Source of the DNA: a virus
Lineage: Duplodnaviria > Heunggongvirae > Uroviricota > Caudoviricetes
Virus record (IMG/VR): IMGVR_UViG_3300033405_000002
Coordinates: 115,595 to 179,594 of that record
Length of the DNA: 64,000 nucleotides
Strand: one strand, 5' to 3'
Part shown: positions 47,865 to 62,539 of the stretch, piece by piece
How the letters are laid out: each line of letters begins with the position of its first letter
Numbering within the stretch: the first letter of the stretch is position 1
The notes under the pieces: model-generated
What the model was told of the DNA's origin: nothing
Database searches by the model: none
The model's input: only the letters and a program-made list of their open reading frames with translations
Position numbers and translations under genes: made by a program

Positions 47865-50800
47865 ATGCCAGCACCTTACTTTTACATCTCGGCACCAGCG
47901 GTAGCATCAATCGACCAGTACAACAACTTCGTGTTAAACTGGACACCCACACCCGATCCAGTCACAGGTTCGTACTCTGCCTACGATTACTGGAACATCA
48001 CCATCAATTCACAGATTGTGAAGTTCCTCGCCCCGGCTGGATACTCCGGTGGGCAGCTTACATACTCGCAAGTCCTTACTACGGACGTGGTTTCTCTAAC
48101 TATGCAGGCATATCAAGCCTTGCCTTCCGTTCAACCATTGACGAACCCGTGGGGAACAGGGGCTAACGGTGCGACTATTGGCGCACCCCCGTTTGTAGCG
48201 GCCCCCAGAGCGTTCCCCGACCCCCTTACAGCATCTTCGATCACATTCAGTGCTGTGTCGCTCTTGCTCGATCAAGCCTTGACGGTCACCCTGAACAACA
48301 GTTATATCAGCCAGATTCCAACTCCCGCTGACCAATGGCAAGTGCTCTGGCCCGACAACACATCGACAGGTTGGTTGCCGCTCACATCGCCTGTAGTTAC
48401 GAAGTCTTTCAGTACGGCTGGCGCGGCAAACGTAATTGTTCAGACGCGTAAGAACTACACAGCGGCGAACGTCTACAACCCGGTTACTTCACTGATTAGC
48501 ACTTACACACAACAGATTTTCGTCGTAGATCAGCAAGCAACAGGGACAACGGCGGGTCAGTCCGGCATCGCTGGCGCTCTTGGCATCGGCGGACAGCAAG
48601 GGTACGAGATCACCAACAATACGAGCGGAACAGTGGCCCCGGAACCTTGGGAAGTGATCGCTCGCGCACTCGTGCGTGATACGGTTACCAACGAACTGAA
48701 GCTCTTAGTTCCTACTTCGCGCTTCTCTAACGCAAGCTCCCTGCTTGGCACTATGGCGATTGACGTTTTCCCGATTGAGGGACGCCCACGCGGTAAGGAA
48801 CTCGTCGTGCCGCCATACGAATTGACCGTGACATCAGAGACAGAGACGGTTCCGGTTGCGATCACTACGGCATCATTCCCAACACTCTACGTTGGAAAGT
48901 CCGTGGTACAGGCACTTGGCACACCGTTCAGTTTCGCCGCGCAGAACGGCATTCTTCCGTATGTTTGGAGTTCTACTGGTTTACCGGAGGGACTCAGCAT
49001 TAACACTAGCGGTGTCCTAAATGGCACGCCATTGGAGCTAGGAACTTTCTCCGTCACGGTTGCCGTACAAGACTCCAGCGTCCCGTTCTCGATCTCTGAG
49101 ATGACATACTCGTCTGTAGTTGAGACGGATTTACTCGTTGAGATCGCGGCGAGTCAGATGGACGCCAAAGGTAACACACTCTCGCAGACCGGGACAACAC
49201 TCGGTTACGCGCAGGTTGGCACGGCTTATAGCGTTCAAATGGATGTTGGCAACGTTGATCCGCTCGCCACGACTCCCGGTGGTTTACCGCCGTATTCATG
49301 GAGCGCACCCGCCGGAGCATTTCCGGTTGGTCTGAGCATCAACAGTGCTGGATTGATCTCAGGAACCCCAGCCACTTACAACTCCACGACTGACTTTAAC
49401 ACGACATTCAGCGTGACAATTCAGGTCACTGATGCCATCGGTGCGAAAGCTACGCAGACGTACACGATACAGCTTATACCAGAAGCGCTGTCCTTCGGCC
49501 CACTCAATCAGCCGACAGTTTACACTCGCCAAGATTTCAAATTGGTTGTGCCCGTTTTCGGCGGTCTTTCGCCCTACACGCTCACAACTTTTGCTCCAGT
49601 CGGTTCAGTAGATGGGCAGTATTACGGCCCCGTTGCTTTGGTCGATGGTCAAGTTGAGATTCCAATCGGACAAGGCGCATTCACGCCCGGTGGTCTTCCC
49701 ACCACAGGGTCGCACGCGTTCATTCTGACGGTTACGGATAGCTCCACACCCGCAAACGCACTGACAACTCAGTTCACTTACACGGCTGAAACCGAGATTG
49801 CTGATGTCCGTTTGGTTTATGGCTATCTCGAAAACTTGGCGCACAGCAGCGATGGAAGTTGGGGCATCTTTGATTCGTCAGAAGCAGGTCAGTTAGTTCC
49901 AACCGCTGGCCCGATTGAAGTTGACGGCGACCTGACGGTTAACAACAAGTATTTCATCAGCGGTTACAGAATCAATCTGACGCAGGCTACGGCAAACGTC
50001 GGCACAGTTGTGTACACGATGCCAAGCAACTCAGACTTCGCCGAATTCATCGGAGAGACCTTCTTTGTATCTGGCTTTACCAACGCCGGGAACAACGGCG
50101 CGTTCACTTGCTCCGCGTCATCGTTAACCTCGATCACGTTGAACAACGCTAATGGTGTGAACGAGACACACGCCGCCAAAGCATTACTGGCGACAGTGCT
50201 GGCAAACGGTGTCTCTGTTGCCGTTGATCCCACGACCACAACGGTTTCAGGCAAGCCTGATGTTGAATTCTACGGGCCTCCGGGACCAAACGCGGTTAAC
50301 GCATCAGCGGTGTTTAGCAACGCAGAGTATCGCGTCCCGCTAGTGGTTAACCAAGAATCTGAACTCACGGCTGCTGCGGCTGCTGTGGGTGGAAAAACGA
50401 CTTACACCGGAACCATTGAAGGCGGTGCGGGTGTTGTTGGTCAGACATTCTACGTGTTCGGCTTCACCAACTATCAAAACAACGGCACGTATGTGGCACA
50501 GACGGGCACAAACGCAACCACTCTTGTTCTCAACAACCCAAACGGTGTGGCTGAAACTGGTGGAAGCTACCTCGCCGCCAATATCTCTGTCCCATTGTTC
50601 ACGGTGTCTCGCGCCTACACTACCCTTACGCATGATGACCCAGCTACGTACAGCATCACGTCCGTAGCGAACGCTGTCAGTGGAAGCACGACTTACACCG
50701 GAACAATCACAGGGGGAGCAGGCAACGCCTTTGCAGGATATTATTTCTCAACCAATGGCTTCGCTGTTGGGGCGAACAACGGTTACTTCCTATGCACAGC

Positions 50801-52565
50801 ATCTACCGCAACAACGCTCGTGCTTGACAACGCGAATGGCGCAACGGACACCACGGGTAAGGCTACGGGTGACATCGGGAGCATCATCACGAATGCTCGT
50901 CCTTTTATCGTAGGTGACGTTGTAGGAATGAACCCCCGCAAGCCGTACTTTAACTCACCCGATCTTCCACCGATCAACAATCAAACGAGTGAACCATCGC
51001 CATACGAAGGTGGTACGTGGCTCGCGGCGGTCGCTGCGGGTTCGACACTTCCTCCGGGATTGTCCTTGGACGCTAACACAGGCTTGATCTACGGGACGCT
51101 GATTGGTAGTGCGATCTCGTCCAGCACCATCAAGTATGTCGATCCATCCGGCGCGGCTCACGGGTCTGTTGTTGTCAACTGGAACACACTCGCAAACAAT
51201 TTCCAGCTTACCTACAACGAAAATCTCGACAGTCTCGTGGTCGGAACAGCATACCCGACCATTAACGCTTTCTCGGCACAACCGGGGGTTACGCTAGTTG
51301 GTACACCGTCTTTCTACGGGACGTTACCCGCTGGTCTGACGATCCAACCCACAGATGGGACGAACATTATTTTGTCCGGCACCCCGACTGAGGCTGGTTA
51401 CTTTGATGTGTGGTTTACAGCATCTACGGCGAGCGGCGAGAGCGCGTCAATCTATCACCGTATCTCGACCATTGTGCCTATCGCGACGTTGAATATCCCC
51501 GGCTACTCGGATTATCCATACGTTCCCGGCACTTCAGTTGTTCAGTCATTCCCGTTGCCGAACGCAACAATTGGCGCGTCCTATGAAGACCCGCAAACCT
51601 TGGCGAACTACACCTTGGTTGCGGTTAATGGTGACCCGCCTTACACGTTCTCAAGTTCGCCGACATTCCCGTTCCAAGGGATCAGTCTTGCAACCACGGG
51701 AGCTACGGCTGGGCAATTCAGCGGCAGCGCCATTGGTCCGGCTGGAACATATCTCTTCGACTTCACAGTGACGGATTCATTGTCCAACACATTCACAGTG
51801 AACAACGTTCCGTTGACGTTCCAAGCATCAGGCTTGAACATCACGACGGTTTCATTGCCAAATGCTACTTCAGGTCTCGCCTACAATGTGACACTGGCGG
51901 CGACGGGCGGCATAGTGCCTTACGTGTGGTCTATCTCTCCTGTGTCTCAGAATCAGTTACCCACAGGTCTGAGTATCGGAGCGTCCACCGGAGCCATCAC
52001 TGGCACGACTTTGCAGGGCGGGTTCAGCAAGCCGATCACGTTCCGCGTTACTGACCATGTTGGGTCATACGCTGACAAAACGTTTACCCTAACGGTGAAC
52101 GTCGGTCTCCAACTGCACGCGGGGCCAGATTACGTAGAGGGAATTTCCCCGGCGTCGAACATCCTTGGGTACTTGGACAACGGGAGTACAACCACCATTA
52201 CCACGCGCCCGAACCTGTCATTTTATGTTGTGGCTACGGGTGTGGTTAGCACATCAATAGCTCAGATGTCGGCGTCAACAAATGCCCCTGACATCTCCGC
52301 GACAGTGGTGTCTCTGAATACTAGCACTCATGTTGCACAGATCGCTTTGAGTGGGATTGGGTTTGACGCTTTCCATCCTGTTCCTGAGTATGAGGGCCCA
52401 GTTGGACATCAGATTGTTCAACCATCGCCGCAGACCCTCACCGTAACGGTAATAGATTCAGGTGTTACGGTTTCACAACTCTTTACATGGCAAGTATATG
52501 CTAATGGCACTATGAGTTTGGCGGCGACAAACACATTTCCGACCAGATTGACGACACCAAGCTAA
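47865..52565 (+). CDS. Multi Ig-domain (He_PIG-like) virion protein (1566 aa)
   Basis: Repeated ITT.S.P...G.AY...L.A.GG..PY.WS....LP.GLS.....G.I.GTP motifs; three FCCH-like variants. Confidence 0.8.
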   Translation: MPAPYFYISAPAVASIDQYNNFVLNWTPTPDPVTGSYSAYDYWNITINSQIVKFLAPAGYSGGQLTYSQVLTTDVVSLTMQAYQALPSVQPLTNPWGTGANGATIGAPPFVAAPRAFPDPLTASSITFSAVSLLLDQALTVTLNNSYISQIPTPADQWQVLWPDNTSTGWLPLTSPVVTKSFSTAGAANVIVQTRKNYTAANVYNPVTSLISTYTQQIFVVDQQATGTTAGQSGIAGALGIGGQQGYEITNNTSGTVAPEPWEVIARALVRDTVTNELKLLVPTSRFSNASSLLGTMAIDVFPIEGRPRGKELVVPPYELTVTSETETVPVAITTASFPTLYVGKSVVQALGTPFSFAAQNGILPYVWSSTGLPEGLSINTSGVLNGTPLELGTFSVTVAVQDSSVPFSISEMTYSSVVETDLLVEIAASQMDAKGNTLSQTGTTLGYAQVGTAYSVQMDVGNVDPLATTPGGLPPYSWSAPAGAFPVGLSINSAGLISGTPATYNSTTDFNTTFSVTIQVTDAIGAKATQTYTIQLIPEALSFGPLNQPTVYTRQDFKLVVPVFGGLSPYTLTTFAPVGSVDGQYYGPVALVDGQVEIPIGQGAFTPGGLPTTGSHAFILTVTDSSTPANALTTQFTYTAETEIADVRLVYGYLENLAHSSDGSWGIFDSSEAGQLVPTAGPIEVDGDLTVNNKYFISGYRINLTQATANVGTVVYTMPSNSDFAEFIGETFFVSGFTNAGNNGAFTCSASSLTSITLNNANGVNETHAAKALLATVLANGVSVAVDPTTTTVSGKPDVEFYGPPGPNAVNASAVFSNAEYRVPLVVNQESELTAAAAAVGGKTTYTGTIEGGAGVVGQTFYVFGFTNYQNNGTYVAQTGTNATTLVLNNPNGVAETGGSYLAANISVPLFTVSRAYTTLTHDDPATYSITSVANAVSGSTTYTGTITGGAGNAFAGYYFSTNGFAVGANNGYFLCTASTATTLVLDNANGATDTTGKATGDIGSIITNARPFIVGDVVGMNPRKPYFNSPDLPPINNQTSEPSPYEGGTWLAAVAAGSTLPPGLSLDANTGLIYGTLIGSAISSSTIKYVDPSGAAHGSVVVNWNTLANNFQLTYNENLDSLVVGTAYPTINAFSAQPGVTLVGTPSFYGTLPAGLTIQPTDGTNIILSGTPTEAGYFDVWFTASTASGESASIYHRISTIVPIATLNIPGYSDYPYVPGTSVVQSFPLPNATIGASYEDPQTLANYTLVAVNGDPPYTFSSSPTFPFQGISLATTGATAGQFSGSAIGPAGTYLFDFTVTDSLSNTFTVNNVPLTFQASGLNITTVSLPNATSGLAYNVTLAATGGIVPYVWSISPVSQNQLPTGLSIGASTGAITGTTLQGGFSKPITFRVTDHVGSYADKTFTLTVNVGLQLHAGPDYVEGISPASNILGYLDNGSTTTITTRPNLSFYVVATGVVSTSIAQMSASTNAPDISATVVSLNTSTHVAQIALSGIGFDAFHPVPEYEGPVGHQIVQPSPQTLTVTVIDSGVTVSQLFTWQVYANGTMSLAATNTFPTRLTTPS

Positions 52566-52574
52566 GGAAAAACA

Positions 52575-55500
52575 ATGGCAATCGTAACAGAAACAATTAC
52601 AGTCACAGTCACAGGGGTCAACCCGCAGACGTTCACCGTTGGCGCGAACGTGAATACCGACACGGGTGCAGGCACAGGTCCGATTAGCCTCACGTTTACA
52701 GGCACCAAAGCGGGCACAGACTCAATTACGGCTACGATGACTTCGCACACATTTACTGGAAACACATCCAATGTGGCGGAAATTGTTTGGCAGCCAATCA
52801 ATGGGCAGATCGCCGTTGCTTCGCCGTTCTCGATCACAACTTACGGCAACCCCAACAAGACAACTGGTTGGCCCGGTTTTTACACTGGCGGCTCGTCCGA
52901 TGGAACGGGTCGTACATTCCCGTACACCACGAACGGATGCACTTCGCTTGTGTGGAACCAAGTTACGGCGAACAACCCAATCAATCCTTTCTGCGCACCG
53001 AACAACGTTTCAGGTTGCGGCGGCGGTTACAAAGCAGACCCAATGCTTGTTGTTCAGCAAACCAGCACAGGCACGGGCGCTGGCTCACTCTCGATCAACG
53101 GCACGAATAACAACCCGGACAACGGTGGAAACTGGCCCGGATTTGTTCTGGATTGCAACACAAGTTTAATCGTCTCGCAGGCTGGTACTTACACATTCTA
53201 CGTGAATAGCGCTGACGTAGCAGCATTTGCGGTGTACATCGGCGGCGGTGCAACTTTCTCTAGCGCCAGCTATGGTAGTCGCTCCGGCAATAGCGGAAAT
53301 TCGTTCCCGGCTACAGGCCCAACAACGACAAGTGCAAAGCTCGCTATTGTTGAGACGAATCCGAACACGTTGTATCCGCCTAACGTTTCAACTTACGTAA
53401 CGTTTCCGAAGCCCGGTGTGTACCCAATTGAGATTGTCTACAACCAGTTCTATAACATCCAGTTCAGCGGGGACAACAACGGCTATTTCCAGTTGACATA
53501 CGGGTATGGACAGTTGAACCAGAACCTCGGAAACGGGACAGTTGGTGTCCAGAACTTCCCGGTAGCGCTCGCGACAGCGCCCCCGGCGGGCAGCCCACCA
53601 ACGAGCGCCTTGCAGTTGACTCCAGTGGGGGGCGCTACAAACTTGCAGCTTCAAGGTGGGTCTGAATCTTTGACTCTCACCATTCAAAACGTTCCTTACA
53701 CGAACATTGTGTATTGCCCGATTTTGGAAGGCACGCAAGGGAGTCTTTCAATTTTCAACAATTCATCCACCAGCACGTTCTCGTTCCCTGAATTTCCGAA
53801 CGCGAGCGACACTTTAACCCCGGTTGACTATCCGTCAGCGGCTACGAATGTCTTCACGCTCAGCGGAGATAACACCGCATGGATGGGGTTATTCACAATC
53901 ACGCCCAACGCGACTACATCTTTTTCTTTGAACTACAACGGTGGGCCTTTCACTTTTGCCACACCGGGGACTGACATCGCAACAACAAACCTGCAAGTGA
54001 CCGCCAATGACATTGCTTGGTTCAACCCGGTCAATAAGAGCTACGATGTGTTCACTCGTAACACTAGCGGGCAGGGCGGTATCGGCTACTCTATTGAGAT
54101 GGACTACATGACGATGCCCACGGTCCAATCCGTTTCCCCGACTTCAATGGTTGCGGACGGAAAGACTCATCCGTTAACGATCAACTTATCACGACCGATG
54201 TCTCCGCAACAACAGGGTTCATACGGCACCGGAAATACGATCCTGCCCTACGCGCAGATTTTGGGCGGCGCGACATTCGCATCAGCTTTCACGCCGATTT
54301 TGGATAGCAACTCGTTCCTGCTCGGCTGGACAACGAGTATCACTGTTCCGTTGTCTACGAGCAACAGCACGCTGACTCTAACGATGTGGCTGCATGGCAC
54401 ATTGACCTATCTGAGCGGAAACACGTTTGTAAATAACGGAGCGGTGAACTATATCGGCAATGGCCCAACACTGTCCGATTACGCTGTGGTGGGGACTATC
54501 GCTCTTACAGGTAGCCAATATGTAGCTCCGGTAGCAGAGGCATTCAGTATCACAGGCGCATCTGGTACTCAAATCGGCTCTAACAACACGTTGTCCGGCA
54601 CGGTGTACACATTTGACAACAACCCTGTGAACTTGCAGTTCCAGTACAAGTTCAACACAAGCGGCACCATCGTTAACATCGGTGGTCTACAAACTTCGCC
54701 GAACGGGGGACACTCAACGATCACTGTTGGCGGCAAGACCGCTTATCAAAGCATTTTCAACCTGTCTTGGGCACCGGGAACAATTCAAGTTGCGTCTGAA
54801 TCGGCGGCACAAGTGCTGCTCGGATACACCGTTACAGACCCAACCAGCGGCTTGTCCACACAGTATTTCAGCAGCACGATTTACACCCTGCCTTACACGA
54901 TTATCGTAGTCTGTTTCACCGGGAATGTGGGCGTCAAGACGCCGGACGGCTTTACTTTGTTTGAAGAGCTTCCGCGTGAAGAGCAGTTCAAGATTACAAA
55001 CAAGTCCGGCACGTTCGACGCTCAACTTATCACCCATGAGTATGCGGGCTGGATGCTTGAGTTTGCGGACGGCAAACTGGTCACACTCGATCACCCGATG
55101 GGAGAGTCGGAAGGTGTATGGGTTGATGCTGAAGTTAAATTCGTTGGTGCGAAGCGCGTGTGGTACGAAGGTACTGTCTACAACATGCACGTACTTGCGG
55201 ATAAATATGACGACCAACACTACATCCTCGATACCGGGGATGTGGCGCACAACAAAGGCGGCGGCGGGGGTGGTTGCCCTGCGGTTGAGATGTTCATCAG
55301 CCAGTACGCGCAGGTTTACGACATCACTGACGGTATGCTGGTCAAAACTTTGGCGGGCAATACCGAAGAATACTTGTCCACTGAGATCACAACCGAACAT
55401 CACCGGGTTGAGTGGCATGATTTCAGTGAGCAGCCTTGCCATCGTCTGCTCGCCGAAAACGGGGCGGAAGTTACCGTGTCTGCCAGCACACCCGTTCCGA

Positions 55501-55754
55501 CGCGTCAGAACATTGAAGCGATGAACGAAGGTGTGCCAGTCGAACAGATCGCGGTGTTTGCTAGTGAAATGCGTGCAGGCATGGATGTCATTACTGACAT
55601 CGGATACGGCCCGGAATGGTCACGCTTAGTGGAGACGGAAGCTGTGGGTATGCGGCGCGTGGCGCGAGTTTACTGCGGTGGGCGCAACTTTGCCACTGGT
55701 ACTAAACCCGGCAAGTACATCTACACACATAACGTACAGCCGATTGTGAAGTGA
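52575..55754 (+). CDS. Virion protein with Ig-like and PA14-like domains and two C-terminal Hint domains (1059 aa)
   Basis: PA14-like GTYTFYVNSAD...GVYPIEIVYNQ; Hint1 CFTG...TLDH...VYNMHV...AHN (54912-55253); KGGGGGG; Hint2 CPA...YTHN (55275-55733). Confidence 0.8.
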   Translation: MAIVTETITVTVTGVNPQTFTVGANVNTDTGAGTGPISLTFTGTKAGTDSITATMTSHTFTGNTSNVAEIVWQPINGQIAVASPFSITTYGNPNKTTGWPGFYTGGSSDGTGRTFPYTTNGCTSLVWNQVTANNPINPFCAPNNVSGCGGGYKADPMLVVQQTSTGTGAGSLSINGTNNNPDNGGNWPGFVLDCNTSLIVSQAGTYTFYVNSADVAAFAVYIGGGATFSSASYGSRSGNSGNSFPATGPTTTSAKLAIVETNPNTLYPPNVSTYVTFPKPGVYPIEIVYNQFYNIQFSGDNNGYFQLTYGYGQLNQNLGNGTVGVQNFPVALATAPPAGSPPTSALQLTPVGGATNLQLQGGSESLTLTIQNVPYTNIVYCPILEGTQGSLSIFNNSSTSTFSFPEFPNASDTLTPVDYPSAATNVFTLSGDNTAWMGLFTITPNATTSFSLNYNGGPFTFATPGTDIATTNLQVTANDIAWFNPVNKSYDVFTRNTSGQGGIGYSIEMDYMTMPTVQSVSPTSMVADGKTHPLTINLSRPMSPQQQGSYGTGNTILPYAQILGGATFASAFTPILDSNSFLLGWTTSITVPLSTSNSTLTLTMWLHGTLTYLSGNTFVNNGAVNYIGNGPTLSDYAVVGTIALTGSQYVAPVAEAFSITGASGTQIGSNNTLSGTVYTFDNNPVNLQFQYKFNTSGTIVNIGGLQTSPNGGHSTITVGGKTAYQSIFNLSWAPGTIQVASESAAQVLLGYTVTDPTSGLSTQYFSSTIYTLPYTIIVVCFTGNVGVKTPDGFTLFEELPREEQFKITNKSGTFDAQLITHEYAGWMLEFADGKLVTLDHPMGESEGVWVDAEVKFVGAKRVWYEGTVYNMHVLADKYDDQHYILDTGDVAHNKGGGGGGCPAVEMFISQYAQVYDITDGMLVKTLAGNTEEYLSTEITTEHHRVEWHDFSEQPCHRLLAENGAEVTVSASTPVPTRQNIEAMNEGVPVEQIAVFASEMRAGMDVITDIGYGPEWSRLVETEAVGMRRVARVYCGGRNFATGTKPGKYIYTHNVQPIVK

Positions 55755-55761
55755 GGAATAG

Positions 55762-56445
55762 ATGGCAGGCAATGGATACGTATACGGTTACACAGGACCG
55801 CCGTTCAACTTTCTTGGGCACTTCTGCTTAACACAGCAGACAGCGTTCAACAGTTGGGTGCGTGCTCGTGAGAAGAACTTTGCCCCGATCCAGCAGCATT
55901 ATCAGATTCGCGCCGCGCAGCTTCGCAAGACGGCTGGCGTGCTTGAGAAGTTTTATTCCACGTTGAATGACGAACCACTCTCGCCTACGTTCAACAAGCA
56001 AGTCTGGAAGCCGGGGGCACAAGGGCACTTCAACTATCCGAATCGTGACGATCAAGTTCCAATGGTTGCTATGTACCAGATCAAGCAATACATGAAGGAA
56101 CAGTTTCAGCGGCAAGACGAATCTGTGTTTCAGATGAACAACCTTCGCAAAGTTATTGAAAAGGTTGAAGATAAGGCTGAAGTCAACTATCTGGCGATGA
56201 ACCAAACGCAGTACAGCAACGACACTGTGGAATCTCTGATTAGCCGAATCAACGGTTATTTCGGCTTAGCGGCCTATCAAGCTGTTTTAGTGAACGACCA
56301 AGCTGACGTGTATCCCACGGGCACCACGCAGCCAAGGTTCCGCGTGCATCAGTTGGATGTGCCTACTCAGTACGAGATCGAGCAGGCAGCGAACGCTCCT
56401 GCTGGAACTGGGCCGTATCTTAACACGAAAGAAGTTTCACCCTAA
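55762..56445 (+). CDS. Hypothetical structural protein (227 aa)
   Basis: GAGGA RBS; tiles operon. Confidence 0.75.
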   Translation: MAGNGYVYGYTGPPFNFLGHFCLTQQTAFNSWVRAREKNFAPIQQHYQIRAAQLRKTAGVLEKFYSTLNDEPLSPTFNKQVWKPGAQGHFNYPNRDDQVPMVAMYQIKQYMKEQFQRQDESVFQMNNLRKVIEKVEDKAEVNYLAMNQTQYSNDTVESLISRINGYFGLAAYQAVLVNDQADVYPTGTTQPRFRVHQLDVPTQYEIEQAANAPAGTGPYLNTKEVSP

Positions 56446-57236
56446 TGAGCTACGACTACAACGTTTTGACGGTCGATCCTATGACAAGGCAGCCTATCGG
56501 TGCCTGCGACCATCATCAGTGGTTCGAGCGATATGTGGTGAATCAAGACGATTTTCGCACGCTGAATTACGCGGGTATGCCGTCAATAAACATGCGTGCG
56601 CCGATCAATGGTTCGTCTGTCGTGCAGATGTGGATTCATGATGAACAGGTGTACTCAGACGATCCAGTTTACGGTTGGCAGGTGGTGCTTGACCCTGACC
56701 GTGTAGACATCGCGACAGCGGCGATATTCTACAAGATCGTCTTCAACAAGCCTACGCGTTTGCTTCTGCCGCTGATCGAAGTCAGTTACATTACGCAGCA
56801 GGGCTACTGCATGAAGTGCAGCGCCACAGGGTTTGTGAACGATCTTAAGCTGGCGGCAACGGCCGATTTTGTACAGGTGACGCAAGGCACCAAACTGGCG
56901 CAGAAGGCATTGAAGTGGATTCTTAGTTCACAATGCCCGTTCTACCCGACATTTACGTGCGTCATAAAGAACTATATCGGCAAGAAACTGGGTATTCAAA
57001 TAACAGATACCGACATTCAGACATCGCTCATCAACGCCCTTAGCACCATGCAGTCCGTGCAGATGGCACAAGGCACCGTGCAGACGCTTGATCCGCAGGA
57101 GATTTTGAAGGACATCATTAGCGTGAACGCGTCAACCGATCCAAACGACCCAACGGTTGTTCGAGTCAGCGCCATTGTGTCCAACTACAGCGGGCAATCG
57201 GTGCCGCTAGGCTTCACGATTAGGATGAATCAATAA
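56445..57236 (+). CDS. Baseplate wedge protein, gp25/GPW-like C-terminus
   Basis: KLAQKALKWIL...ILKDIISV...DPTVVRVSAIVSNYSG; precedes baseplate J-like gene. Confidence 0.65.
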   Translation: MSYDYNVLTVDPMTRQPIGACDHHQWFERYVVNQDDFRTLNYAGMPSINMRAPINGSSVVQMWIHDEQVYSDDPVYGWQVVLDPDRVDIATAAIFYKIVFNKPTRLLLPLIEVSYITQQGYCMKCSATGFVNDLKLAATADFVQVTQGTKLAQKALKWILSSQCPFYPTFTCVIKNYIGKKLGIQITDTDIQTSLINALSTMQSVQMAQGTVQTLDPQEILKDIISVNASTDPNDPTVVRVSAIVSNYSGQSVPLGFTIRMNQ

Positions 57237-60200
57237 TGCCAACACCTACTACGACATTGACGGCGCTTCAACTGGTAACCCCAGTTCTGCCGCCGAATAC
57301 GTCCGTCTTGTCAACGGATTCGTCCGTTCTGCCTTTCGTCATCAATGGCGACACGAATACAACCCGCATCGAGATTGGCATCTACAACACGGTCTACGGC
57401 CTCAACACGTACACCACGGCCCCCGCTCTGGTTTGGAGTCCGTCTACGACCTACTCTGCTGGGCAGCTTGTCACGTATCTTGGGGCGGCTTACATCGCCA
57501 AGGCAAACGCAAACGCAAACCTTGACCAAAGCCCGCCAGTGTCTCCCGATTTTTGGGCGCTTTACACAGGCTCGACCAACCAGAATCAGTTCACACTAAC
57601 AGTTCCAATCACAACTTCCATTGCGCAGACGAATGTGCAAATCGTGGGAAGGAACTATGATCCAAGCGCAACTTGGGAAGCCAACTTCGCTTACTCAACA
57701 GGCGCACGCTTCGCGGACAGCAACGGCAATGTTGAAGTTGTTGTTGCAGTCACATCTGGCGGAACATCAGGCCCTACCCAGCCTTCATGGGCAACCTTCC
57801 TACCTATCGCGGGAACGAGCGTCACGGTAAACAATAACGTTCTAACCGTCGCCGCGCCGAACGTTGCTTTTAGCTCTGGTCAGTTGGTGTATTTCACCAA
57901 TTTCGTTAACGCAACTTTCTTGAACGGTCAAGTGTTGACCGTAGCTTCTGTGACGCCGGGAGTTGGATTCACAGCGCCGATTACTGCGTCAAACTACGTA
58001 ACAACAGTGGACACCGGAACAGTTCAATCCGCAACGTCCGATGGGGCTGTCACTTGGGCTAACGTGGGCGGCATAGCTGTTACCCCGATTGTCAAGTTTG
58101 CGTTCCTGTATTTCCAGAGTGACCTTGCAGCATCCATTGCGCCGCCGTCCGGCATCTCCGCGTTAAAGAATCAGACGGACTGCACGCTACGGTGGGTTAC
58201 ACCAGATTATCCGGGCTTCATTGGTGTGCGTGTTCAGATTTCAACTGACCCCGCTGGTGTCAATCCGCCATTCACGCAGTACGGTGACCTCATCACAAAC
58301 GTGACGACTTCTGTCCCCACGGTCATCAACACCACTACAGCCACTTCGGTTAATATCCCCGAAGCTCTGATTACGGGTGTGTCGCTCTCGAACAACCTGC
58401 TTACTGTCCTTGCGGCAAACAGCTTTGTTCAAGGCACTGTCGCTACACTAGGTGGACTCGCGAGCGCCACGTTCTTAAACGACGAGACGATCACCGTGCT
58501 GTCCGCTTCTCCCACGTTTTTCACCGCGAGCTTCACCGGAGAGAACTACGGCAACAGCATTACAGCTACATCTATCTCCGGCAACACCTTGACAGTTACG
58601 GTGTCCAATGAGTACGTCACCGGGGATCAGGTAGTGCTTAATGGCACGCAAGAAGGGTTCCTCAACGGCGTAGTGCTGACGGTTCTAACCGCCACGGCGT
58701 TCCACTTTACAGCGAAAGCCCCTATTGTAGTAACACCATACACGAACCCGGCAGACACAGGCGTTGCAACCATTGCTGACAGTGGTATCGCCACGAGCAT
58801 CATCAGCACCAGCACAACGCAAGCGACGAACACAACGATGACCACAAACTACAGCACCGTGGACATCCCGTACTCCATCATCAATCAGCAAGTGTTCTAT
58901 GCGATGTTCTCTACGGTTATTCAAGACCCACAAACAAACATCATCTATGAATCCGTGGAGAATGGCCCACTACTTTGCGGCTTTGTCAATTTGAAGCTGG
59001 CTGGCCCAACGGACTTCCCTGTCCTTCAACGTAAAGAAGACATCGCTGGACGTTTGATCGCGCAGATCAACAAGCAGCTACCTGATCTCGATCTATCTCC
59101 GCGTTCTGAAGCGCGAGACCTGTTCATTGATCCGTTCTCAATTGAAGCAGCGAACATGTCCGTGCGTGAATGGTTCGCCCGCGTGTCCACGAGCATTTCC
59201 GCGATTTCACAGGTAGATGACTCCACGGGCAACGGTGTGTCCGATCCGTTCCAGTCATCGCCATACAAGCAGCAGATCGCTCGTGCCTACGGTTTGTCCC
59301 CGCAGGATACGCAGAATTTAATCAATGAGCAGTTTGATTTGTTAGGTGAGCAAGCCGGACTTGTCCGTCTCGGTTCAACGGCATCTACTGTGGTGCTTAC
59401 GTTCTACACGTATCAGCAGCCACAGTCCAGTATTGTGATCCCTGAAGGTGCAACAGTAAGCACCATTCCCAGCGCTACAACGTCTTCACTCACATTCCAG
59501 ACACAAGGGCAGGGTGTTATTGACATCACCAACTTGGCATCGTTCTACAACTCCACCACGGGCTGGTGGGGTGTAAGCGTTCCCGCACAATGCACTCAGC
59601 CGGGGTCAATCGGCAATGTGGGCGCGGGCACGATCACACAGACAGTCGCCAACACGCCAGCCGGGATCAACGTTACGAACCTGATTGGTGCTCAGTTTGG
59701 TAGTGACCAAGAATCCAACTCTGGTTTTGCGGCGCGTATTCAGGCTCGCTTGGTTACCGGAATTGATAGTAGCTCGCGCAACGGCTACCTCGTTGCCGCG
59801 CTCAGCACACCGGGAATCATCGGCGCACAAGTTGTCGCGGCGGGAGATTTGTTCATGCTTCGTGATTGGGACCCAACCCGTCAGAAGCACGTGTACGGCG
59901 CAGTGGACATCTACGTTCAAGGTAACACCCTTTCACAGCAAGACAACTTCGTGCCGTTCGTCTACCAAAACAACGGCACATACGGTGTTTACACATCGTA
60001 TTCTTCGCTTACATATCTTGGCAACAACACGTTCCAGATCAACAATTTCAACTCACTGGCTTTCCCGCCTTACGATGGTGTTGAGCTTTACGTGTCTCGC
60101 TCGTCCGGCAGTTTCTACCTTTCGCTTGACAGAGCGCAGTTCTTCGGCGGCACCATCATCATCAACGGTAATGACATGGCATATCAATATGTGGGAAGCG

Positions 60201-62539
60201 CAACCACGTATGCCAAAGTTCCGCTTATCATCAACACGAACCCCGCCACAAACACTGTTGCCCTTGGCACGCTGGCTGGTGCTACGTCAGGAACCTACAG
60301 TTTCCAGTTGTTCATGCGCGAAGGTTCCCCGCTGAGCTACGTGCCATCGTCACAGCCTGTGTTGCAAGTTTACTCGGTTACAGGATCGTCCACCGAGACA
60401 GGCGCGATACCGAGCGACGACATTACACTGATTCACACATCCGACTTCTTGCTGGAAGGCGGCTCTAACGCCGCAGGCGACACGGTGCAGGTCTCGTTGA
60501 CGAGCACCCCCGTAACAAACATGGTTACAGTTGCTTCCCCGTTGACATCGCCAACGTTGATTGACATCGGCATGGCACAGACTATCGCGGCGAGCGGCAG
60601 TCCGGGCAACGTCCTGTCCGTGCGCAGTAGTGACCTTTCGACGCTGTATCAATATGGGATTGACTACACTATCGTCCCGTATGGCCCGTACTTGCAATAT
60701 GCACTGCAAGCACTGACATCATCAGTGGCGATCAAGTCTGTAGCGATTCTGAACAATGTGCTTACAGTGGTGTGCAACAATGAGTTCAGCGCGAACTCGG
60801 TCGTAACTCTGTCTGGTTTAACCAATGCCACGTTTTTGAACAACCAGCCTGTCACTATCGCGACAGCTACACCGACATCGTTTACCGCTGTCTTCACTTA
60901 CAGCAACTACCCGACTCCGGCGGGCATCACGGCGACTTCAATCTCGAACAATGTCTTGACCGTCACCGCGCCAAACAGCTTCACCGTCGGGCAGACGGTT
61001 GTTCTCAGCGGCACGTCCGAAGCGTTCTTAAACAACCAAACGGTCACCGTGCTCACGGCGTCGAACACGCAATTCACCGCTAACTTCTCCGGGGCTAATT
61101 ACACGAACAACAGCGACACAGGTATCGCCGCGTCAACCACGCCTGACACCGGAATTGTAACTGGTAGCGCGATCCAGCCTAACCAGCAGTTGTCTGTGAC
61201 CTACAACAAGTATGTGTTGTACGAGCGTCTTTCGTTCATCGCCAATGAGTCTCAAGTGCTTAGCGGCACGCTGCCAACTACATTGGACAACGACGGCTTC
61301 GTGAACAACACGTGGCTGCCGCAGAGCTATACGATTGGTATTCCAACATTCCCTGTCACCCAACTCGGCTACAGTCTGATCTTAGACGGCTGGGACGGCG
61401 CGTATAACACGACAGACGGCGGCTTGGACATCGCAGGATCACTGGCGTATGACCCATCCGGTCTTGTCGGCAACGGCGTACCGTATGCTTCTCGTTACAT
61501 CAAAGTGACCTACAACAACGGCGTAACAAACGTTGTCATGAAACAGAATTTGGATTACACGTTGACGGTTGATCCGGTATCAGGCTCCGCTACTCTCGCG
61601 AGAATCGTGACAGGAGCGATCCCTGACGGCGCGACTGTAAACGTGTCCTACTTTGTGACTGAGACCTTCACGATCAGCACGCAGTACCCGACGTTCGTTC
61701 AGATGCTTGCAAACACAATCGCTGAAACGAAGTCCGCAGGAGCAAGTGTTCTGGTCAAGGCGATGGTTGCAAATCCAGTTGACATTACGTTGACTGTGAC
61801 CTTGGACGCGAACACGTCAGCAGCGACAGTTGATCCGGTCATTCGCACGGTCATCAACATTGTGCTGGACAACTCGGTCGGCACGCTGTACCAGTCATCA
61901 CTGATTCAGCAGATTCAGAACATCACAGGCGTGAAGAGCGTGGAAATCCCACTCATCAAGTGCGCTAAGTCTAACGGTTCCTATGACATAGGGGTTGTAG
62001 TCCCAACCGGAACACCTTGGACTAAGCTGAGTTCTGATCCGGCGTTCTCCGGTGTAAATTCTTCCGTGAATGGTGTCCCGGTCAGCATCCCGCAGAATAG
62101 CTGGATCACAACCGCGCAGGTTTTGTCCGACTCAACAATCCCATCTGGCGGCGATCCAAACGCTATTGTGGACTTCTTGTATCAGGGTCAGGCATTCGAG
62201 CGTGCAACATCCGTCAGCAGCTTCTTGACCACGGCACTTAGTGTACCGCATCTTGCAGTTGCACCCGGAGCTACGTTCGATTCGCCGGGATCATTTTACA
62301 TCATTGGTGTAAACGATCCGTACTTCATCAACAACCCGAACCTTACGGCTTACGCTACGGCATACGAAGGCAAGGTCATGGTCACTATCCCAACTGACGT
62401 GGCGAATCCCGGCAACCTGCCTTACTTCTGCACTTATCAGGTGTTTGATGAAGAAGGCGCGAGTGACGTTACTGTGTCGCCGACTGAGTATCTATCACCG
62501 GGCACTATCACCATCAACTATGTGACACCAACGAGCTAA
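57236..62539 (+). CDS. Giant baseplate J (gp6)-like protein with accessory repeats (1767 aa)
   Basis: DLSPRSEARDLFIDP, IPEGATV, VPAQCTQPGSIGNV, GSDQESNS.FA.R, VDIYVQG J-like motifs; five FCCH-like and two CBM-like modules. Confidence 0.8.
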   Translation: MPTPTTTLTALQLVTPVLPPNTSVLSTDSSVLPFVINGDTNTTRIEIGIYNTVYGLNTYTTAPALVWSPSTTYSAGQLVTYLGAAYIAKANANANLDQSPPVSPDFWALYTGSTNQNQFTLTVPITTSIAQTNVQIVGRNYDPSATWEANFAYSTGARFADSNGNVEVVVAVTSGGTSGPTQPSWATFLPIAGTSVTVNNNVLTVAAPNVAFSSGQLVYFTNFVNATFLNGQVLTVASVTPGVGFTAPITASNYVTTVDTGTVQSATSDGAVTWANVGGIAVTPIVKFAFLYFQSDLAASIAPPSGISALKNQTDCTLRWVTPDYPGFIGVRVQISTDPAGVNPPFTQYGDLITNVTTSVPTVINTTTATSVNIPEALITGVSLSNNLLTVLAANSFVQGTVATLGGLASATFLNDETITVLSASPTFFTASFTGENYGNSITATSISGNTLTVTVSNEYVTGDQVVLNGTQEGFLNGVVLTVLTATAFHFTAKAPIVVTPYTNPADTGVATIADSGIATSIISTSTTQATNTTMTTNYSTVDIPYSIINQQVFYAMFSTVIQDPQTNIIYESVENGPLLCGFVNLKLAGPTDFPVLQRKEDIAGRLIAQINKQLPDLDLSPRSEARDLFIDPFSIEAANMSVREWFARVSTSISAISQVDDSTGNGVSDPFQSSPYKQQIARAYGLSPQDTQNLINEQFDLLGEQAGLVRLGSTASTVVLTFYTYQQPQSSIVIPEGATVSTIPSATTSSLTFQTQGQGVIDITNLASFYNSTTGWWGVSVPAQCTQPGSIGNVGAGTITQTVANTPAGINVTNLIGAQFGSDQESNSGFAARIQARLVTGIDSSSRNGYLVAALSTPGIIGAQVVAAGDLFMLRDWDPTRQKHVYGAVDIYVQGNTLSQQDNFVPFVYQNNGTYGVYTSYSSLTYLGNNTFQINNFNSLAFPPYDGVELYVSRSSGSFYLSLDRAQFFGGTIIINGNDMAYQYVGSATTYAKVPLIINTNPATNTVALGTLAGATSGTYSFQLFMREGSPLSYVPSSQPVLQVYSVTGSSTETGAIPSDDITLIHTSDFLLEGGSNAAGDTVQVSLTSTPVTNMVTVASPLTSPTLIDIGMAQTIAASGSPGNVLSVRSSDLSTLYQYGIDYTIVPYGPYLQYALQALTSSVAIKSVAILNNVLTVVCNNEFSANSVVTLSGLTNATFLNNQPVTIATATPTSFTAVFTYSNYPTPAGITATSISNNVLTVTAPNSFTVGQTVVLSGTSEAFLNNQTVTVLTASNTQFTANFSGANYTNNSDTGIAASTTPDTGIVTGSAIQPNQQLSVTYNKYVLYERLSFIANESQVLSGTLPTTLDNDGFVNNTWLPQSYTIGIPTFPVTQLGYSLILDGWDGAYNTTDGGLDIAGSLAYDPSGLVGNGVPYASRYIKVTYNNGVTNVVMKQNLDYTLTVDPVSGSATLARIVTGAIPDGATVNVSYFVTETFTISTQYPTFVQMLANTIAETKSAGASVLVKAMVANPVDITLTVTLDANTSAATVDPVIRTVINIVLDNSVGTLYQSSLIQQIQNITGVKSVEIPLIKCAKSNGSYDIGVVVPTGTPWTKLSSDPAFSGVNSSVNGVPVSIPQNSWITTAQVLSDSTIPSGGDPNAIVDFLYQGQAFERATSVSSFLTTALSVPHLAVAPGATFDSPGSFYIIGVNDPYFINNPNLTAYATAYEGKVMVTIPTDVANPGNLPYFCTYQVFDEEGASDVTVSPTEYLSPGTITINYVTPTS

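Follow-up and report, generated by a model that had tools for sequence, protein, structure and literature searches.

Why should a protein from the tail module of a giant phage end in two Hint domains, one behind the other? The gene in question, P0002, lies in a stretch of 64,000 nucleotides (hereafter the window; positions 115,595 to 179,594) of IMG/VR virus record IMGVR_UViG_3300033405_000002, whose source is a giant phage and whose 332.3 kb are rated complete. A note made earlier from this DNA (the original prediction) had described tandem Hint domains of bacterial intein-like (BIL) type at the C-terminus of a virion protein. Its reading of the letters was exact: the translation of 54912-55754 runs from Cys780 to His892-Asn893 (with TLDH and VYNMHV), through Lys894 and six Gly, then from Cys901 to Thr-His-Asn1053, and ends in VQPIVK and a stop. 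We find that both modules, here called domain A and domain B, are Hint domains of BIL character, and that cassettes of this kind regularly close tail and adhesin proteins, one type standing in for the other, in large uncultured phages as well as some cultured Xanthomonas jumbo phages. With moderate confidence, and from patterns of sequence conservation, we further propose that both domains are active, single-turnover autoprocessing modules of the BIL type, whose self-removal would be an obligatory step of maturation.

Fold, catalytic residues and class of the two domains

A full HMMER scan of 1.84 billion cluster representatives returned relatives of the cassettes in 324 protein clusters at E<=1e-3, 127 of them at E<=1e-10. 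Residue conservation was read from alignments of 76 A-type and 66 B-type modules. The A modules share an invariant Cys1, Phe2, block-B His and terminal Asn, with the Thr of the TxxH motif and the penultimate His almost invariant; in the B modules, Cys1, a second Cys (here Cys955), Thr-Pro, one Gly and the terminal His-Asn do not vary. Counted over all domains, Cys1 is present in 117 of 122 A domains, and His-Asn closes 113/122 A and 81/82 B domains. AlphaFold2 models, made separately for domains A and B, reached a predicted local distance difference test (pLDDT) of 92.1 and 92.5, respectively, and Foldseek searches with both retrieved Hint-fold structures only. Relatives, conserved residues and models thus bear out the tandem Hint domains, and the structure prediction that had been suggested as a check gave the expected fold. 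Tetrahymena BIL2 is the top match of domain A, whose other matches include the C. thermocellum BIL domain, mini-inteins and a Vint domain, while domain B matches DnaB inteins, Hedgehog and BIL2. In the structural alignment, the Cys of the models falls on intein residue 1 and their Asn on the last intein residue. Domain A carries T-L-D-H as its block-B Thr-x-x-His. By sequence register, domain B has S-A-S-T, followed by an invariant Pro, and the earlier remark on a block B lacking His was right in that S-x-x-T stands for T-x-x-H.

Sequence profiles told less than structure. For this copy, Hint families in Pfam, PHROGs and NCBIfam gave no match, and Pfam Vint (PF14623, cut-off 27 bits) none even at E<=1. 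Relatives are closer to known profiles: 35/76 A-family modules match Vint (best E 1e-6), as do eight of 59 full-length carriers (best 1.9e-11; individual scores of 22.6 and 25.8 bits fall under the 27-bit cut-off), and one of 66 B modules matches Hint PF01079 (E 0.007). The profile search proposed in the original prediction was therefore negative for P0002 itself, with matches in part of its family. Searching PDB sequences with the protein and with a 15-sequence A profile recovered neither the BIL structure 2lwy nor any intein, only chance matches (phage CI repressor, IF-2); the likeness of A and B to solved BIL domains and PDB inteins is structural, with no detectable similarity in sequence. 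Nor did profile-profile comparison of A with B reveal homology beyond the Gly run and the Cys, which rules out a recent duplication. As far as sequence can tell, A and B are two unnamed cassette families unrelated to each other.

To which class of Hint domain do they belong? Type A BIL domains (Amitai 2003; Dassa 2004; Aranko 2013 for the C. thermocellum domain, 2lwy), as summarised in PMC4031507 and PMC7765530, have Cys1 and a terminal His-Asn, lack a nucleophilic +1 residue and reside in variable, non-conserved, non-housekeeping surface proteins. They mostly cleave but can also join their flanks by aminolysis: cyclisation of the Asn sets free an amino group, which attacks the thioester (PMC4031507). 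The +1 residue is Lys894 behind domain A and Val1054 behind domain B; among short C-terminal tails it is never Cys and only in 5/88 A and 7/81 B cases Ser or Thr, being hydrophobic or Lys across the two families. Because Cys1 and the terminal His-Asn are present and a +1 nucleophile is absent, both modules are assigned to the BIL type, with the residues and the carriers of type A. The original prediction was sound on this point, and two characterised BIL domains are among the nearest structures.

The other classes fit less well. Type B BIL domains lack a terminal His-Asn, which is invariant in both domains here. Class 1 inteins have Cys, Ser or Thr at +1, a conserved insertion site, intein-free hosts and often an endonuclease. 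Canonical inteins were rejected as neither domain has such a +1 residue, the cassettes sit at the extreme C-terminus, modules of 114 and 153 amino acids (aa) leave no room for a homing endonuclease, and a search with the protein body gave no complete cassette-free orthologue. Hog domains were rejected for want of an adduct-recognition region behind the Hint fold, with seven residues following domain A, six following domain B, and His-Asn in place. Pre-toxin HINT domains were rejected in the absence of a downstream toxin, the open reading frame (ORF) stopping six residues past domain B.

Carriers and cassette exchange

Among 188 fetched proteins, the cassette lies within 25 residues of the C-terminus in 176. 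A stands alone at the C-terminus in 84 and B in 80, A-A occurs there in 12 and A-B in two (P0002 and one fragment); eight proteins have an internal A and two an internal A-A. Carriers elsewhere contain Phage-tail_3, Rcc01698_C, GpJ-FNIII, PA14, GLEYA, Laminin_G_3, carbohydrate-binding modules (CBMs) and fn3 domains. B cassettes also end hypothetical proteins of ~450 aa beside tail-fibre genes in the cultured Xanthomonas jumbo phages LucasX and PhiXhv-12/15/16, which are usable experimental systems. In two of these, PhiXhv-15 XYR93251 (L002, 4900-6291) and LucasX LUCX_306 (L003, 5080-6426), the B-type cassette follows a run of 10 to 14 Gly. Searches by tblastn additionally match domain B in Erwinia/Xanthomonas phages Ep032 and Ep026 and in Stenotrophomonas phage DLP_6. 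No relative was found in 185,579 species-representative prokaryotic genomes searched with two patterns per family, a result whose sensitivity is confined to those patterns, and no second copy of A or B exists elsewhere in the 332.3-kb genome.

How the endings behave is best seen in the slot that P0002 itself occupies. Full-length orthologues of its body (residues 1-775) are 32-52% identical to it, with a mean identity of 40% in a 38-sequence alignment (A7). In phage contigs of 450-460 kb (L004, L005), gene order is kept: a He_PIG giant, the Hint-capped protein, proteins of ~222 and ~264 aa, and a Baseplate_J giant. In this position an orthologue may close with A, B, A-A or A-B. When 44 N-terminal bodies are placed on a maximum-likelihood tree, cassette type (A, B, AA or AB) changes at least ten times, no fewer than with shuffled labels. 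Even near-identical sisters differ, P0010 ending in B and P0045 in A, and their similarity stops inside the poly-Gly run, marking it as the switch point. P0002 itself resembles a B-type orthologue with A inserted ahead of its K-G6 linker. Using the body alone as query, we found no complete orthologue lacking a cassette. Two short matches, P0192 and P0200, stop just before the poly-Gly run, P0200 being known only from a 3.2-kb contig; assemblies or gene calls that break at the Gly-coding repeat may hide cassettes in databases.

Together, this pattern argues for a cassette that is obligatory but free in type. Since the ending is always there and its kind does not seem to matter, a generic chemical or processing role would fit better than specific binding or a dispensable parasite. 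It also bears on the central mechanism of the original prediction, in which Hint1 splices out and exposes a Gly6 thioester for Hint2. That arrangement is particular to P0002: since A, B, A-A and A-B stand in for one another among orthologues, the functional unit is not the tandem.

Some carriers depart from the usual layout. In the large metagenome proteins P0090, P0100, P0136, P0137 and P0159, domain A is internal and several hundred residues follow it, opening with a common motif such as F-x-C-T-T-A-G-[TV]-S; the A family could here have a different use, cutting the protein into two parts or truly ligating its flanks. In the A-A tandems P0080, P0091 and P0114, the second domain lacks the terminal Asn (HD, LD or ND instead) and has a longer tail. 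To judge from the missing residue, such domains could carry out the N-terminal step only.

The junction, the lysine and a possible mechanism

What surrounds the cassettes is as regular as the cassettes themselves. Most B modules are preceded by 5-11 Gly, and about half of the A modules have Gly or Gly-Ser/Ala/Thr directly before Cys1. P0002 has a Gly run at its second junction only, the first reading IIVV before Cys. Behind the terminal Asn, the C-extein typically has 4-7 residues, nearly always including one Lys. A tails have it at +2 (58%), +1 (21%) or +3 (12%), and within +1 to +3 in 98/113. In B tails, Lys is the last residue in 64/81, independent of tail length, and among the last two in 74/81; some have a Gly spacer before it. 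Arg takes its place in one A tail and in no B tail, nor is Arg ever the last residue of a B tail. Within the domains, Arg is as common as Lys or commoner, and Lys makes up only 2.3% of these proteins. The possibility that the terminal Lys codon is preserved for the sake of a downstream ribosome-binding site was rejected, as AAA and AAG both occur and the spacing and sequence downstream vary; selection on Lys thus acts at the protein level. Since two unrelated Hint families each keep, beside a thioester-forming site, a Lys for which Arg is no substitute, it is the amine itself that would seem to matter, be it as acceptor or as base.

Under the autoprocessing reading, the precursor would be a tail- or baseplate-associated, adhesin-like protein with two C-terminal Hint domains. 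N-S acyl shifts would convert the bonds between Val779 and Cys780 and between Gly900 and Cys901 into thioesters, while Asn893 and Asn1053 would cyclise and cut the bond behind each. The Hint domains would thereby remove themselves, leaving a mature protein that ends at or just past the junction, in most relatives with a poly-Gly end. Rather than a selfish intein, the cassette would be an interchangeable maturation device, acting as a transient cap or an assembly checkpoint. Self-removing domains had been the second choice of the original prediction, and are at least as well supported as the splicing and cross-linking model that it preferred.

How would the thioester be resolved? Plain hydrolysis has a chance of somewhat more than one in three. 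By analogy with characterised systems, we give about one in three to attack by the cassette's own amines instead of water: either the epsilon-amine of the C-extein Lys, as in Tetrahymena BIL2, or the freed alpha-amine, as proposed for type A BIL domains. By both of these routes, the short tail peptide would stay joined to the new C-terminus of the protein. The Gly-ended N-extein and the Arg-irreplaceable C-extein Lys are features compatible with BIL2, and a family-wide tail Lys together with a poly-Gly N-extein would fit a Lys conjugation chemistry independent of E1 and E2. That the cassettes are enzyme-free protein ligases, working through a Lys epsilon-amine in cis (to give a branched, capped C-terminus) or in trans (on a baseplate Lys or a host-envelope amine), is a tentative idea suggested by this likeness, and we regard it as less likely than not.

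Several observations weigh against autoprocessing by both domains. The residue before domain A is Val, which is beta-branched, and not Gly; Val in place of Gly ahead of an intein's Cys1 tends to slow the first step. By sequence register, domain B has neither the block-B His nor the block-F Asp that normally drive the N-S shift and, because both are missing, its activity would seem less certain than that of domain A. The C-terminal tail is modelled at low confidence by AlphaFold2, and the conserved Lys could instead serve as a general base or make a structural contact. As a rule, Hint domains are monomeric, which leaves a role as folding or trimerisation chaperone without structural support. 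For P0002 and all relatives found, the literature held no experimental cleavage, mature C-terminus or virion location, and the LucasX paper gives no virion mass spectrometry.

Alternatively, the thioester might be kept until a foreign nucleophile—a baseplate Lys or an amine or hydroxyl of the host envelope—attacks it, so that the Gly end becomes covalently fixed in a ubiquitin-like, E1/E2-free cross-link or adsorption step. Several features are consistent with this: the poly-Gly N-extein is reminiscent of the Gly-Gly with which ubiquitin-like proteins end and of the Gly-Cys site of Hedgehog, the proteins that bear a cassette at their distal C-terminus have carbohydrate-binding or adhesin domains, and any Hint type suffices, as expected if the thioester alone matters. 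In addition, BIL2 is reported to move its N-extein to Lys of other proteins besides its own C-extein (PMC8616854). However, as the conserved Lys lies within the cassette's own tail, an acceptor in the same molecule or a part in catalysis is favoured. Neither a conserved partner protein nor an acceptor motif was identified (Lys acceptors were not looked for in the two small genes downstream), and the literature searched held no precedent for Hint-mediated virion cross-links. We consider such a conjugation in trans unlikely. Somewhat less probable still are domains that never cleave, retained at the tip as structural or binding modules with catalytic-looking residues kept for the fold. The Val before domain A and the unorthodox block B of domain B could be explained in this way, and the second A-A domains that lost their terminal Asn indicate that activity does decay within the family. 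Against this stand Cys1 and His-Asn, near-universal in two unrelated families, the free exchange of A and B among close orthologues, which ill fits a specific binding role, and the Lys that Arg cannot replace, which points to chemistry and not to structure.

Are the cassettes then mobile parasites that splice themselves out, with domain A a recent insertion upstream of a B-type Gly linker? The frequent gain, loss and swap on the tree, the resemblance of P0002 to a B-type orthologue that received an A before K-G6, and the ability of type A BIL domains to ligate their flanks (PMC4031507) would agree with such an origin. Yet there is no homing endonuclease and no +1 nucleophile, the site at the extreme C-terminus leaves merely 4-7 residues to be restored by splicing, a search with the body alone gave no complete cassette-free orthologue, and none of the 185,579 species-representative prokaryotic genomes contains a relative by the patterns used. 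Selfish elements thus appear very improbable to us. Autoprocessing by exchangeable cassettes, with its weak points at domain B and at the first junction, is the reading that we retain.

Known systems and the locus

The fold and the BIL-type residue pattern are already known. New compared with the literature searched are two unannotated families and their service to tail proteins as obligatory endings that can be exchanged, together with the poly-Gly junction, the mini C-extein with its Lys and, in family B, a non-canonical block B and a second Cys. Our literature search for Hint domains in tail proteins of phages gave only terminase and ribonucleotide reductase inteins and the HINT of polymorphic toxins. 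Type A BIL domains, the closest class, differ in that the cassettes here close phage tail proteins, have poly-Gly ahead of them and are followed by no more than a C-extein of 4-7 residues with a conserved Lys, and in that domain B replaces the His of TxxH and has an invariant second Cys.

BIL2 from the polyubiquitin-like BUBL1 locus of Tetrahymena thermophila (PDB 6Y75/6TMM; Chiarini 2021) is reported to join a Lys epsilon-amine to the C-terminus of its N-extein by an isopeptide bond, with no ATP or E1/E2 (PMC8616854), which is a published precedent for the E1/E2-free conjugation of the original prediction. Its N-extein ends in Gly, as here, and its isopeptide chemistry is what the tail Lys would allow; in contrast, BIL2 is eukaryotic, with ubiquitin-like flanks and an acceptor Lys in a folded C-extein, whereas here a phage tail N-extein of ~780 aa meets a hexapeptide. 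If Lys is indeed the acceptor, no earlier case of Lys-directed protein splicing would be known from a prokaryotic virus, and the cassettes would be natural modules of very small size (114 aa) with which C-termini could be ligated free of enzymes. If, further, the cassettes act as ligases, giant phages would use a ubiquitin-like, ATP-independent isopeptide chemistry that has so far been reported only for ciliate BUBL/BIL2.

Hedgehog/Hog domains (PDB 1AT0, 6TYY) are alike in their C-terminal position and in a Gly-Cys site, often Gly-Cys-Phe as in the A relatives, and likewise resolve the thioester with a nucleophile other than an extein Cys. Unlike the cassettes, in which six residues follow an invariant His-Asn, Hog lacks the terminal His-Asn and has a sterol- or adduct-recognition region. 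Pre-toxin HINT domains of polymorphic toxins are found towards the C-terminus of long proteins that are filamentous or built of repeats, in some cases tail-fibre repeats, and act there as a releasing peptidase (PMC3482391). They precede the toxin that they release, whereas here a hexapeptide alone follows and no immunity gene is adjacent.

A different comparison is offered by the peptidase S74 or intramolecular chaperone domains, as in K1F endosialidase and T5 pb1, which are C-terminal, needed in maturation and removed autocatalytically. In outline they resemble the cassettes as self-removing C-terminal domains of phage fibres and spikes, but they are trimeric Ser-Lys dyad proteases without an activated intermediate, as opposed to a Cys thioester plus Asn lyase in a monomeric Hint fold. 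Even if cutting is all that happens, the cassettes would thus be a second, chemically different solution to the problem of a self-removing C-terminal domain, and would show where many receptor-binding proteins truly end once mature, a point relevant to modelling and engineering host range.

The coordinates of P0002 and its parts are collected below.

Features of P0002, in window positions
Feature	Position	Strand	Basis
Whole gene P0002, 1059 aa, tail/baseplate-module protein with two Hint cassettes	52575..55754	+	ORF list, translation
N-extein (protein body), residues 1-779, rich in Thr/Ser/Gly/Asn, ending PYTIIVV	52575..54911	+	translation
Hint domain A, Cys780-Asn893, 114 aa; Cys1-Phe2, block B T-L-D-H, block F V-Y-N-M-H-V, terminal A-H-N	54912..55253	+	
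Linker Lys894-Gly895-900: mini C-extein of domain A, with the Lys typical of the family, and poly-Gly N-extein of domain B	55254..55274	+	translation
Hint domain B, Cys901-Asn1053, 153 aa; Cys1-Pro2, invariant second Cys955; S-A-S-T-P replacing T-x-x-H; block F/G C-G-G-R-N-F-A and Y-T-H-N	55275..55733	+	
Mini C-extein of domain B, VQPIVK, and stop; final Lys is the family signature	55734..55754	+	translation

P0002 lies within a block of very large genes on the + strand, and genes further upstream have weak matches to tail-protein PHROGs; from its position in this tail/baseplate gene block, it is a reasonable inference that P0002 is a virion protein. The body of this copy has no match in Pfam, PHROG or NCBIfam. 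The label Ig/PA14 given to it earlier finds some weak leads on the PA14 side, namely a PA14 match in one orthologue, an E of 0.12 for a profile comparison with a PA14 chain and an Atlas lead (0.83), and no profile match in P0002 itself; the N-extein probably consists of beta-sandwich or PA14-like adhesin domains. A sub-threshold match to the LtfC beta-sandwich (19 bits against a cut-off of 27 bits) in the library scan of P0002 was treated as chance.

The upstream neighbour (47865-52565, +) encodes a 1566-aa protein with five He_PIG Ig-like domains, and the giant further downstream (57236-62539, +) a 1767-aa Baseplate_J protein with an N-terminal CBM_5_12 module. Directly 3' of P0002 lie two small genes without a family match, at 55762-56445 (+; 227 aa) and 56445-57236 (+; 263 aa), either of which might encode a partner or an acceptor for the protein once it is processed. 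The size and position of both are kept in related phages.

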